64,000 nt of DNA from an uncultured Actinomycetota bacterium (GCA_963747405.1 CAVVFG010000011.1:5018-69017), one strand, 5' to 3'. Shown: positions 47,517 through 49,981, numbered from the stretch's first letter. The notes: generated by a model not told the origin, from the letters alone. Numbers and translations are program-made.

Positions 47517-48185
47517 TCAGCCGGTCACGACCTCCGGCGCCTCCGCATGAGCGCGCACCAGCGCCACCACGAGCCGGTCGGCGGCGTCGTTGGCGCGGGC
47601 CAGCATCCGGGTGGTGGCCGGCGTGGCCAGGGCATGCCGGCAGGCCAGCTCGCCGAGCACGTCGAGCAGCAGGCTGCAGCAGCGCTGGAACGCCGCCACG
47701 CTCTCGCCGAGGTTCCCGCTTCGGCGGCGCGCGAGCCTGCCGTGCATCGCCGCCGCCTGCAGGGCCGGGGCCAGCGCGGCCTCACGTTCCCGTCGGGTGC
47801 TGCCGTCGACGTAGCCCAGCACCCCGTCGACCAGGGTCCGGCCACCGAGAGCGAGCACGGCGTGGGTCTGCTCGTCGGCCCCGTCGAGCCACGAGACGTC
47901 CGGGCACGCGGCGGAGATGCTGGCGCGCAGGATGTCGACCACCGTGTCCGTCGAGCCACCCAGGGCGGCGATCGACGGCTCGGTGCTCGCGGCATCGGGC
48001 AGCAGGTGCTCGAGCGTCGAGCGGGCGTAGCGGCGGTGACCGCCCGGGGTCGTGAAGGTGACGATCTTCCCGGCCACGCTCCATCGCCGCAGCGTCGCCG
48101 GGGAGACCCCGAGCATGGCGCTCGCCTCGTTGACCCCGAGCCAGACCTCACGGTCCTCGGCAAAGGGGTGCGGACCGGTGACCAT
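47517..48185 (-). CDS. BldC/MerR-like HTH regulator with C-terminal all-helical domain
   Basis: WLGVNEASAMLGVSPATLRRW...GKI...TPGGHRRY. TGATG-coupled to the decaheme gene. Confidence 0.85.
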   Translation of the reverse strand: MVTGPHPFAEDREVWLGVNEASAMLGVSPATLRRWSVAGKIVTFTTPGGHRRYARSTLEHLLPDAASTEPSIAALGGSTDTVVDILRASISAACPDVSWLDGADEQTHAVLALGGRTLVDGVLGYVDGSTRREREAALAPALQAAAMHGRLARRRSGNLGESVAAFQRCCSLLLDVLGELACRHALATPATTRMLARANDAADRLVVALVRAHAEAPEVVTG

Positions 48186-49981
48186 CAGCTTCCTCCTGAA
48201 GGGAGGTGAGCGTTCGACCTGGGCAGCACGTTGTCCTTGTGGCACTCCTCGCAGTACGCCTTCTGGTGGCAGACGGCACAGGCCTGCGTCCCGCCGGCGA
48301 CCTTGGCCGACTGCGCGTGGTTGTAGAGCATCTCGTCGTGGCTCACCTTGATGGCGCCGCTCTTGTGGCAGTTCTCGCAGTAGCTCGTCTGGTGGCACAC
48401 GCCGCAGGTGGCCGGGTTGGCCGAGGTGGTGCCGGCGACGACGCGGTGGTCGAACACCCACAGCGGGTCCCGGTGGTCGGCCGGCCGGGCGCCGAGCGGC
48501 ACGTTGGCGACCGTCTGCGATCCCTGCGGAGCGGTGTGGCAGGTCTCGCAGGTCGACGGGATGGTCTCCTTGGTCAGCTGGCCCTTGACGACCTTGTAGT
48601 GGGCGCCGTCGTGGCAGCGGAAGCACCCGTTGGAGCTCTGGTGCCCCAGGTTGGTCGGGTAGGTGCCGCTGCGCACGTTCATGTGCGAGTCGACCGTCTC
48701 GTCGAAGATCTCGGTGAGGCTCCTGGTCGCCGCCGTGATGTCCTTGGCCTGGTCCTTGGCCACGAGCGGGTACTTGCTCGTGTAGAAGTCGGACAGCTTG
48801 CTGATCGCCTCGCGGCCCTCCTCGTCGGTCGCGTACCGCTGGGCCAGCAGGGCGACGGAGTTCCGCTTGACGAAGGGCAGCGTGGGGCTGATCCGGCCCT
48901 CGGCCATGGCGGCGTCGACAGCCCGGTCGGCGGTGGGGGAGTCGTGCCCGACCCGGTTGTGGCAGTCGAGGCAGTCCATCGTGCGGGTGGTCTGGGTGGC
49001 GGTGAGCCGGGCCAGGTCCTGCCCGGCGTTGATCGACTCGCGCACCTGCCCCTCGGCGATGAACTGCTCGAGCTCACCGGTCTTGCTGTCCTTGAACTGC
49101 ACGCTGTCGATGACCTGCTGCTGCTCGTCGGGCGAGGTGTACGTGACCTCCTGGAGCACGTGCCAGTGCGTCGACACCGGGTCGGGGCCATCGGCGTTGG
49201 CCGGGCGGATCAGCACCGCGAGGTCGTTGCGGGTGTTCTTCTCGTCGCGCTCGAAGGAGGCCCGCACGTGCAGCTTGCTCGGCTGGCCCGGCTTGGCCAT
49301 CTGCGACAGGGGGTGGCACTTCTCGCAGGTGTTGGCCGTCGGCGGCATCTCGTCGTGGGCGATCGGCGGGATCGGCGTCGGGTAGGTGGCGGTGACCAGG
49401 CGGTAGAGCTCCCTGGTGCCGGCCAGCTTCGCGCTGACGAAACCCATCACTCCGGGGTTAACGTGGCACTCGCCGCACGAGACGTCCTGGTGCGGGCTGG
49501 CCTCGAAGGCGTTCTTCTGCGGCGTCATCGTGTGGCAGGTCGTGCAGAAGGCCGCGCTCTCGGAGTACTCCACGAGATGCACGGTGCCCAGGGTGCCCAG
49601 CACGCCGAGCAGCAGCACGCCGCCGACCGTCGCGAGGATGCCGCGGGTCGTGGTCGGCAGCACCTTCAGCAGCCGTGCCTTCCAGCGAGCCCAGAACCCC
49701 GGCTTCGCCGAGGTCGCCGCCGCGCCGTCCGCGCCGTCCGCGCCGTCCGCGCCGTCCGCGCCGTCCGCGCCGTCCGCGCCGTCCGCGCCGTCCGCGACGT
49801 CCACGCCGTCCGCGCCGTCCGCGACGTCCACGGGAGCAGCGGTGGTGCCGGGGTCAGGCACGGCGGTGCCGGCATCCCCCTCGGGCACGGCAGAGCCGCC
49901 GTCCCCCTCGGGCACGGCGGTGCCACCATCCGGTACCGGGTCGGGGCCGGCGGTGCCGGGATCGTCGCCGGAGGTGCTCAT
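48185..49981 (-). CDS. Membrane-anchored NapC/NirT-type decaheme cytochrome c (ImcH-like)
   Basis: One TM helix, then CTTCHTM, CGECH, CEKCH, CLDCH, CFRCH, CETCH, CGVCH, CENCH, CAVCH, CEECH. Confidence 0.9.
   Translation of the reverse strand: MSTSGDDPGTAGPDPVPDGGTAVPEGDGGSAVPEGDAGTAVPDPGTTAAPVDVADGADGVDVADGADGADGADGADGADGADGADGAAATSAKPGFWARWKARLLKVLPTTTRGILATVGGVLLLGVLGTLGTVHLVEYSESAAFCTTCHTMTPQKNAFEASPHQDVSCGECHVNPGVMGFVSAKLAGTRELYRLVTATYPTPIPPIAHDEMPPTANTCEKCHPLSQMAKPGQPSKLHVRASFERDEKNTRNDLAVLIRPANADGPDPVSTHWHVLQEVTYTSPDEQQQVIDSVQFKDSKTGELEQFIAEGQVRESINAGQDLARLTATQTTRTMDCLDCHNRVGHDSPTADRAVDAAMAEGRISPTLPFVKRNSVALLAQRYATDEEGREAISKLSDFYTSKYPLVAKDQAKDITAATRSLTEIFDETVDSHMNVRSGTYPTNLGHQSSNGCFRCHDGAHYKVVKGQLTKETIPSTCETCHTAPQGSQTVANVPLGARPADHRDPLWVFDHRVVAGTTSANPATCGVCHQTSYCENCHKSGAIKVSHDEMLYNHAQSAKVAGGTQACAVCHQKAYCEECHKDNVLPRSNAHLPSGGS
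49721..49828. repeat. 9-bp coding VNTR (CGCGCCGTC)x8 plus 4 degenerate units, encoding (GAD)n
   Basis: Perfect units at 49721-49792, in the N-terminal tail of the decaheme protein. Confidence 0.9.

Follow-up and report, generated by a model that had tools for sequence, protein, structure and literature searches.

A ten-heme member of the ImcH family, predicted to oxidise menaquinol, in a cytochrome gene cassette shared by Actinomycetota and Chloroflexota

Results

The decaheme gene and its product

The window analysed here is a stretch of 64,000 nucleotides (nt; 72.5% GC overall) from an uncultured soil actinobacterium (GCA_963747405.1, CAVVFG010000011.1:5018-69017), and this work concerns one of its genes, which encodes a membrane-anchored c-type cytochrome with ten heme-binding motifs (hereafter the decaheme), together with the gene cassette in which it lies. 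An earlier reading of the sequence, the original prediction, had placed at 48185-49981 an ImcH-like quinol dehydrogenase extended to ten hemes. These coordinates are right and the gene lies on the minus strand, which had gone unstated; the coding sequence (CDS) runs from an ATG at 49981 to a stop codon at 48185, specifies 598 amino acids (aa) and has a third-position GC content of 0.95. The CxxCH motifs stand at residues 146, 169, 219, 337, 453, 478, 526, 535, 568 and 577 (in order CTTCH, CGECH, CEKCH, CLDCH, CFRCH, CETCH, CGVCH, CENCH, CAVCH and CEECH), ten in number where about 0.03 would be expected from the composition of the protein, and its Cys residues, exactly 20, are all inside them. 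Because the ten-motif pattern is kept in 101 of the 111 full-length members of the clade to which the protein belongs (the target clade, described below), it is conserved and not accidental. Hydropathy gave one hydrophobic segment, at about residues 112-135, in agreement with the single transmembrane (TM) helix of the original prediction; a K/R-rich stretch stands just before it, and an N-in, C-out topology with the hemes outside is therefore predicted from the positive-inside rule. The motifs that had been named were all found, namely CTTCHTM at residues 146-152, SAKLAGTRELY at 183-193, HWH at 272-274, MDCLDCHNR at 335-343, LPFVKR at 368-373, GTYPTNLGH...GCFRCHDG at 439-459, and the two C-terminal CxxCH-x4-CxxCH pairs, CGVCHQTSYCENCH and CAVCHQKAYCEECH. 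The features of the gene are as follows, each with its basis in brackets.

48185..49981, minus strand: decaheme CDS of the ImcH family, 598 aa (open reading frame, third-position GC 0.95, ten CxxCH, 138 homologues)
49697..49981, minus strand: N-terminal low-complexity tail, aa 1-95, P/G/D/A-rich and predicted to be cytoplasmic (tandem repeats, predicted local distance difference test score (pLDDT) <50, poor alignment among homologues)
49577..49648, minus strand: single TM helix, about aa 112-135, counterpart of ImcH TM3 and of the NrfH anchor helix (hydropathy, helix 112-140 in the model, BLASTP to ImcH TM3, NrfH alignment)
49292..49576, minus strand: NrfH/NapC-like region with hemes 1-3 and the predicted quinol site, E141, CTTCHTM 146-152, H164, K185, E191 and Y200 (PF03264 2.3e-11, phmmer to NrfH 2j7a_C 2.4e-9, Foldseek, residue conservation)
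48980..49291, minus strand: beta-rich insert separating hemes 3 and 4, aa 231-334, present in ImcH and missing from NrfH, with HWH at 272-274 (strands in the model, alignment with ImcH)
48953..48979, minus strand: heme 4 motif MDCLDCHNR, aa 335-343 (C337, C340, H341, N342 and H346 invariant in both clades)
48629..48952, minus strand: helical domain, aa 344-451, with LPFVKR and the NLGH motif (pLDDT 86-98, helices 351-429, alignment with ImcH)
48536..48628, minus strand: hemes 5-6, GCFRCHDG ... CETCH, aa 452-482, the end of the core common to ImcH (spacing 116 + 25 vs 117 + 20 in GSU3259)
48227..48493, minus strand: clade-specific C-terminal module, hemes 7-10, with conserved H503, H512, H548 and H555 (module hidden Markov model (HMM), pLDDT 51-83)

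The DNA of the tail holds tandem arrays at 49715-49829 and 49857-49977 (9 nt x 12.9, DGA repeats; 27 nt x 2.8), and the length of this cytoplasmic tail varies greatly among homologues. A scan for promoters and terminators around the gene gave nothing above shuffled background.

Membership in the ImcH family

A search of 5.8 billion proteins returned 138 homologues of the decaheme at E<=1e-5, the best being 84% identical and from a metagenome-assembled genome (MAG) of Ornithinibacter, and a 569-aa protein of Intrasporangium calvum 64% identical. Pfam recognised only the NapC/NirT N-terminal region (residues 115-230), the scores against the NCBIfam NrfH model TIGR03153 (57.5 bits, cut-off 134.2) and the napC_nirT model (16 bits, cut-off 310.6) stayed below the cut-offs, and the sole solved match in a sequence search of the PDB was NrfH of Desulfovibrio vulgaris. 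A profile from 25 family members, run against 1.84 billion cluster representatives, collected 4679 relatives, 648 of them at E<1e-30, with ImcH-type proteins at about 1e-90; most share the architecture of ImcH, with about 480-510 aa, three TM helices, 6-7 hemes and CX3CH as the first motif. Genomes were also scanned with the motifs GCFRCHDG and CxTCHT[FA]PQ. Among the matches listed, a taxonomically incomplete set from which I. calvum, for example, is absent, were loci of Geobacter, Desulfuromonadaceae and Acidobacteriota at 32-38% identity (tblastn E 1e-62 to 1e-70) and full-length relatives at 40-82% identity in MAGs of Actinomycetota, Solirubrobacterales and Chloroflexota.

ImcH of Geobacter sulfurreducens (GSU3259), an inner-membrane menaquinol:cytochrome oxidoreductase, is homologous to the decaheme from its last TM helix to heme 6. 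The comparison was made with a 507-aa protein, P0332 ('MULTISPECIES [Geobacter]'), whose hemes at 132/157/206/312/429/449/487 equal those of the published GSU3259 row save for a constant one-residue offset at all positions but the first. BLASTP aligned it with the decaheme at 34% identity over 406 aa (213 bits, E 3e-60 for a 1e9-letter database), and another Geobacter locus at 32% over 405 aa. Five heme-to-heme spacings are shared, the decaheme having 23/50/118/116/25/48/9/33/9 and GSU3259 24/49/106/117/20/38 (Zhong and Shi 2018, PMC6295460), and hemes 2-6 are of the CX2CH type as in ImcH (50/118/116/25 vs 49/106/117/20). The motifs K-x2-G-x-R-E/Q, HWH, MDCxDCHNR, LPF/YxK and NxGH...GCFRCHDG are invariant or nearly so in both the target clade and ImcH, in keeping with the core spacers that the original prediction had likened to those of ImcH; in an alignment of 149 sequences (111 clade members and 38 Geobacter-type ImcH), H272 and H274 of the beta-rich insert are invariant and W273 nearly so. 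Because of this BLASTP homology, the low scores of the comparison sequences and the spacers kept in both groups, the ImcH-like reading is supported, and the sequences place the decaheme in the ImcH family, within a distinct clade with one TM helix, CX2CHxM at heme 1 and ten hemes.

The decaheme groups with ImcH and not with NrfH. Phylogeny had been proposed as a check, and when 120 sampled proteins were compared by neighbour joining over their common core (335 columns), the clade of the decaheme stood apart from all other sampled members (bootstrap 169/200). Members of the target clade have one TM helix, a CX2CHxM first heme as in NrfH and usually ten hemes, whereas three-TM relatives among the 120 nearly always have CX3CH. 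The decaheme itself differs from ImcH in having one TM helix and not three, CX2CHxM and not CX3CH(xx)M at heme 1, and an unrelated four-heme module in the place of the single seventh heme. Like ImcH it is associated with other multiheme cytochromes, but its host is a monoderm and its cassette has its own maturation genes, which are without counterpart at canonical ImcH loci.

Several members of the ImcH superfamily (P0143, P0160, P0166, P0201, P0220, P0227 and others) carry 17-34 CxxCH motifs, and the ImcH core is therefore commonly extended by hemes at its C-terminus, to very different lengths. Proteins of about 655 aa from Desulfuromonadaceae (P0322, P0328, P0335, P0343, P0348, P0349, P0354, P0366, P0377 and P0387) combine a full ImcH with Cache domains (PF08269, PF17200) and would be ImcH fused to a ligand-sensing module.

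In the decaheme the extension, hemes 7-10, occupies the last ~100 residues. An HMM of this module matched clade members only, leaving ImcH and the ImdcA and PdcA proteins of Thermincola unmatched, and no Pfam domain reached its cut-off there. The pattern resembles that of ImdcA/PdcA by eye (YCxxCH..H..NH..G..CxxCH..YCxxCH), with gapped BLASTP alignments of 26-28 bits; given the results of the HMM and Pfam, this likeness was not accepted as a sign of homology.

The I. calvum protein (WP_013492697.1, P0024) already appears among the tabulated ImcH homologues of Zhong and Shi (2018, PMC6295460, Table S3), where it is entered with ten hemes and one TM helix, and I. calvum and Anaerolinea were noted as one-TM exceptions in that published list (PMC6295460). 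It shares one TM helix and ten hemes with the decaheme, and its spacings, 23/50/118/116/25/60/9/33/9, differ only between hemes 6 and 7 (60 vs 48). The decaheme is thus less novel than the original prediction assumed, being the orthologue of a protein on record, to which a table row and a single sentence have been devoted.

Predicted quinol site and structural model

The original prediction had seen a quinol site in CxxCHxM at heme 1 with a downstream Lys and an acidic residue. In a HMMER alignment, M152, K185 and E191 of the decaheme lie opposite M49, K82 and D89 of NrfH. In a preprint on Geobacter ImcH (10.1101/2023.05.03.539133), the purified protein interacts with menaquinone and reduces PpcA, E127, K173 and Y188 are conserved pocket residues proposed for menaquinol oxidation, K173 is equated with NrfH K82, and heme 1 is predicted to be His/Gln-ligated. 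These three residues correspond to E141, K185 and Y200 of the decaheme and are kept in both groups of the 149-sequence alignment, in which E141, M152, K185 and G188 are invariant or nearly so throughout. By this alignment the predicted Gln ligand is ImcH Q179, and the decaheme has E191 there; the position holds Q in 38/38 Geobacter-type ImcH, and Q in 61 and E in 49 of the 111 clade members. The claim of NrfH-type residues at the quinol site held up, and the acidic residue is real in the decaheme but not universal, Gln standing there in 61 of the 111 clade members.

An AlphaFold2 model built from the 149 sequences, with hemes absent, had a pLDDT of 78.3 and a predicted template modelling score (pTM) of 0.73 (pLDDT 57 in a run with 25 sequences). 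Confidence was mostly 85-98 in the core (residues 95-480), 51-83 in the C-terminal module and <50 in the tail (aa 1-95). Foldseek matched the model in the PDB to NrfH only, as 2j7a and as 2vr0 with bound 2-heptyl-4-hydroxyquinoline N-oxide (probability 1.0, root-mean-square deviation 2.5 A, ~114 columns, 26% identity), with no match beyond the N-terminus. As for the quinone-pocket model that had been suggested as a check, the support extends to the fold, the placement of the pocket residues and an NrfH-like N-terminus, and not to a pocket as such.

The resemblance to D. vulgaris NrfH (2J7A/2VR0, NapC/NirT family) thus comprises the single anchor helix, a CX2CHxM first heme, and Lys and acidic residues at the K82/D89 positions. 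Unlike NrfH, a tetraheme of ~150 aa bound to NrfA, the decaheme has 598 aa and six more hemes, separates hemes 3 and 4 by 118 residues and is without an NrfA partner, and so lies outside the compact tetraheme type (~150-200 aa) that reaches the model cut-offs. With ImdcA of Thermincola (Tfer_0070 / TherJR_1117; sequence from PMC7911101, Fig. S4), which is proposed to oxidise quinol and to start a chain of cytochromes across the wall, it has in common ten hemes, a single N-terminal anchor and a monoderm host. BLASTP similarity was confined to the N-terminal 110 aa (28% identity, 52 bits; the rest 26.6 bits and heavily gapped), and ImdcA, with ~350 aa, has neither the ImcH-type insert nor the helical domain; the parallel drawn in the original prediction holds as functional analogy and not as family membership. 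CymA of Shewanella oneidensis is likewise a single-helix quinol dehydrogenase of the NapC/NirT type that feeds extracellular electron transfer, but is described in the literature as a tetraheme of ~190 aa restricted to Proteobacteria.

The gene cassette around the decaheme

The decaheme gene is the tenth of eleven genes on the minus strand, in the order TPR1, NHL, hexaheme, 7/8-heme, TPR2, CcdA, ResB, ResC, ResA, decaheme and a MerR/BldC-like helix-turn-helix (HTH) gene.

60274..61254, minus strand: membrane-anchored TPR protein (TPR1), first gene of the cassette (TPR families)
59188..60261, minus strand: NHL-repeat beta-propeller with an N-terminal TM helix (PF01436 6.9e-26; syntenic in 17 loci)
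57854..59044, minus strand: secreted hexaheme cytochrome, 396 aa, with a Sec-type signal peptide (by eye) and six CxxCH (Paired_CXXCH_1 7e-18; syntenic in 24 loci)
55035..57740, minus strand: 901-aa cytochrome (7/8-heme) with an N-terminal anchor, a ~400-aa P/T/S/A-rich linker and C-terminal 7 CxxCH + 1 CX4CH (Paired_CXXCH and MtrC/MtrF II/IV Pfam matches; syntenic in 20 loci)
54066..54782, minus strand: membrane-anchored TPR protein (TPR2) (TPR families; syntenic in 24 loci)
53283..54026, minus strand: CcdA (DsbD_TM) reductant transporter (PF02683 3.6e-17; synteny)
51758..53269, minus strand: ResB/CcsB (PF05140 1.6e-72; synteny)
50820..51761, minus strand: ResC/CcsA cytochrome c assembly protein (PF01578 5.7e-41; synteny)
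49978..50763, minus strand: ResA-like thiol-disulfide oxidoreductase with an N-terminal TM helix, start codon uncertain (AhpC-TSA/Redoxin, ResA NF002854; syntenic in 24 loci)
47517..48185, minus strand: MerR/BldC-like HTH protein, last gene of the operon (HTH_17, MerR, BldC NF033787; downstream in I. calvum and 9 other loci)

The ResA stop codon overlaps the start of the decaheme gene (ATGA), and the decaheme stop overlaps the start of the HTH gene by 1 nt. System II (CcsBA/ResBC) cytochrome maturation is represented by CcdA, ResA, ResB and ResC, all co-encoded with cytochromes whose heme domains are predicted to lie outside the membrane. In the 901-aa cytochrome the CX4CH motif is CTLTCH, the ~400-aa linker is long enough to span the cell wall, and its C-terminus showed no sortase signal. 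Neither the hexaheme nor the 7/8-heme protein had a significant match in PDB sequence searches, a weak paired-CxxCH likeness to 6r2q_A being the only hit, and the searches gave no link of the two to OmcS or MtrC. The window held no c-type cytochrome open reading frames beyond the three of the cassette and no recognisable terminal or catalytic reductase, and no gene for a NrfA, NapAB or TorA-like partner was found in cassette or window. The decaheme, which groups with ImcH, hence does not appear as the NapC/NrfH-type partner of a reductase encoded nearby, the arrangement that the original prediction had set against itself.

Conservation of the cassette

Synteny was tallied by in-frame tblastn at 28 target-type loci from Actinomycetota and Chloroflexota, 25 of them distinct and informative once two that were too short and one duplicate had been set aside. 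The hexaheme, TPR2, ResB, ResC and ResA genes were present in 24 of the fetched loci, CcdA in 22 and the 7/8-heme gene in 20, and in nearly all they stand immediately upstream in the same orientation, with rearrangements in L008 and L027. Counted over the distinct informative loci, the cassette is collinear in 24 of 25. The more distant members retain at least CcdA-ResB-ResC-ResA-decaheme, and one divergent nine-heme member is without the cassette. At the 57 canonical ImcH loci, the hexaheme, 7/8-heme, TPR2, CcdA and ResA genes were found in none (0/57).

I. calvum, a different organism from the source of the window, has the same cassette in the same order from the NHL gene through the MerR-like gene, which is directly followed by a functional nrfH-nrfA nitrite-ammonification operon (L001 12571-14515, CP002343.1), at the place where Tad pilus genes stand in the window. 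The neighbouring cytochrome cassette goes unmentioned in the paper published on that operon. The decaheme was considered as the NrfH of this NrfA and rejected in that role, the operon having its own NrfH, which is unlike the decaheme (BLASTP not significant). In several Chloroflexia loci a second ten-heme protein of 511-541 aa is encoded ~2 kb downstream of the decaheme gene (MAG loci L013 from 13355, L019 13464, L025 13313, and L022 13847, the last from an open reading frame scan only); the three that were read carry a signal peptide and, at the C-terminus, a coiled coil and a TM anchor, and are without counterpart in this window. Our literature search found no description of the cassette as a unit, nor of its spread in Actinomycetota and Chloroflexota, and neither ImcH nor these phyla come up in a 2026 preprint about conserved multiheme machinery in peat.

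Discussion

Our results suggest, with a probability that we put at roughly 0.6, that the decaheme oxidises menaquinol and feeds an extracellular electron-transfer route via wall-spanning cytochromes. What our data show is the homology with its conserved residues, an N-terminus that fits NrfH, and an operon whose structure and synteny are conserved; quinol oxidation, the direction of the electrons, the partners and the transfer across the wall to extracellular acceptors are what we infer. The single N-terminal helix would anchor the decaheme with all hemes outside the membrane, and menaquinol (MK-8 is the only quinone of I. calvum) would bind at the membrane surface beside heme 1, in a pocket built from the anchor helix, E141, CTTCHTM with M152, K185, E191 and Y200, to be oxidised there with release of its protons outside. 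Electrons may then run through hemes 1-6, the core common to ImcH, and on to the clade-specific four-heme module, for which the role of a built-in wire, as the original prediction had it, is plausible. They would be handed over to the co-encoded secreted hexaheme and next to the 7/8-heme cytochrome on its long Pro/Thr-rich tether, and final acceptors outside the wall could be Fe(III), Mn(IV) or humics. The adjacent CcdA-ResB-ResC-ResA would serve to attach hemes, roughly 24 in all, to the three cytochromes. We propose more tentatively that the decaheme is the quinone-pool entry of a self-contained extracellular electron-transfer cassette of ~13 kb in monoderms, one that has its own heme-attachment genes and is conserved in soil Actinomycetota and Chloroflexota.

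Several observations weigh against a role in menaquinol oxidation and extracellular electron transfer. Two traits of ImcH, the three N-terminal TM helices and CX3CH at heme 1, are missing from the decaheme, and the pocket chemistry may differ, the heme-1 distal residue being Glu here and Gln in over half of the clade. The heme-free model gives no real pocket geometry. Purification and biochemistry exist for Geobacter ImcH only, and it is for that protein alone that a requirement with high-potential acceptors and the delivery of electrons to periplasmic cytochromes have been shown. For the hexaheme and the 7/8-heme protein there is no characterised homologue, and we assume for them the role of wires and not of enzymes. 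The decaheme sequence was present only in DNA metagenomes of soil, groundwater and wetland, and in no RNA runs; furthermore, the Intrasporangiaceae are mostly aerobes, and mineral respiration is not known from them.

The nrfHA operon directly downstream of the I. calvum cassette is a further such point, and it bears on the proposal that the decaheme is the quinol dehydrogenase of a reductase for soluble substrates (nitrite, sulfur or nitrogen oxyanions, chromate), with its multiheme neighbours catalytic and not wires. An NrfH-like N-terminus would suit that role, the Thermincola surface cytochrome OcwA is related in the literature to multiheme enzymes of the nitrogen and sulfur cycles, and one Intrasporangium species is named for chromate reduction. 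We nevertheless judge it quite unlikely, since the I. calvum NrfA has an NrfH of its own, nrfA is absent from this window and from most syntenic loci, the decaheme groups with ImcH, and its neighbours match only paired-CxxCH and MtrC/MtrF-type wire domains and are without CxxCK or any other catalytic-heme signature. Operation in the opposite direction, in which the same protein and site would pass electrons to menaquinone and the cassette would take them from Fe(II), reduced humics, Mn(II) or cathodes, is unlikely: ImcH homologues come so far from Fe(III) reducers only and ImcH is implicated in quinol oxidation only, the step from Fe(II) to low-potential menaquinone is energetically uphill at neutral pH, and the cassette has no iron-oxidation marker such as Cyc2. 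It does draw on the bidirectionality of NapC/NirT-type quinol dehydrogenases (CymA) and of extracellular electron-transfer pathways, as reviewed, and on a monoderm member of the Chloroflexi with a surface seven-heme cytochrome that is reported to give both anodic and cathodic current, and the hosts, soil aerobes or facultatives, could use O2 or nitrate as the sink.

A relay independent of quinone, in which the membrane-tethered decaheme would be fed by another complex and its NrfH-like motifs would be inherited remnants, fits the variation between E and Q at the heme-1 distal position and a first-heme motif unlike that of ImcH, and quinone binding in the clade is so far predicted from sequence. 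The near-invariance of E141, M152, K185 and G188 in an alignment that includes the biochemically studied ImcH makes this highly improbable, as does the cassette, which encodes no other membrane redox protein able to link to the quinone pool.

The mechanism by which cytochromes carry electrons through a thick wall is known only for a handful of Firmicutes, chiefly Thermincola and Carboxydothermus, and in the literature of 2020 Actinobacteria with multiheme cytochromes were still called rarities. The decaheme gene itself is no surprise; the cassette context is the less expected result and the more interesting lead, in that an ImcH-type quinol dehydrogenase heads a gene set conserved in many soil Actinomycetota and Chloroflexota genomes. 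If respiration of minerals or humics does proceed through it, abundant and mostly 'aerobic' lineages would have a cytochrome route to these acceptors, and a wider set of soil organisms would take part in iron and carbon redox cycling. I. calvum, which carries the cassette, is cultured, and the proposed pathway is therefore open to laboratory testing. Since the clade sets an NrfH-type CX2CHxM first heme in an ImcH body, it is also useful for tracing the origin of ImcH from NapC/NirT ancestors.

Other genes of the window

Divergent from the first cassette gene are a HisKA_3 sensor kinase (61329-63356, plus strand) and a NarL/LuxR-type response regulator (~63350-64000, plus strand), which may regulate the cassette. 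Just downstream of the cassette, on the opposite strand, lies a Tad/Flp-type pilus set (42845-47486, plus strand) with a CpaF-like T2SSE ATPase, T2SSF membrane proteins and a TadE-like protein, and beyond it a 1455-aa FHA + YscD-like + FtsK/SpoIIIE ATPase protein (38413-42780, minus strand), whose architecture is like that of EccC/EssC (type VII secretion). An NAD-specific glutamate dehydrogenase of 1630 aa (31113-36005, plus strand) is followed by a PdtaS-type GAF/PAS histidine kinase (36175-37653, plus strand).

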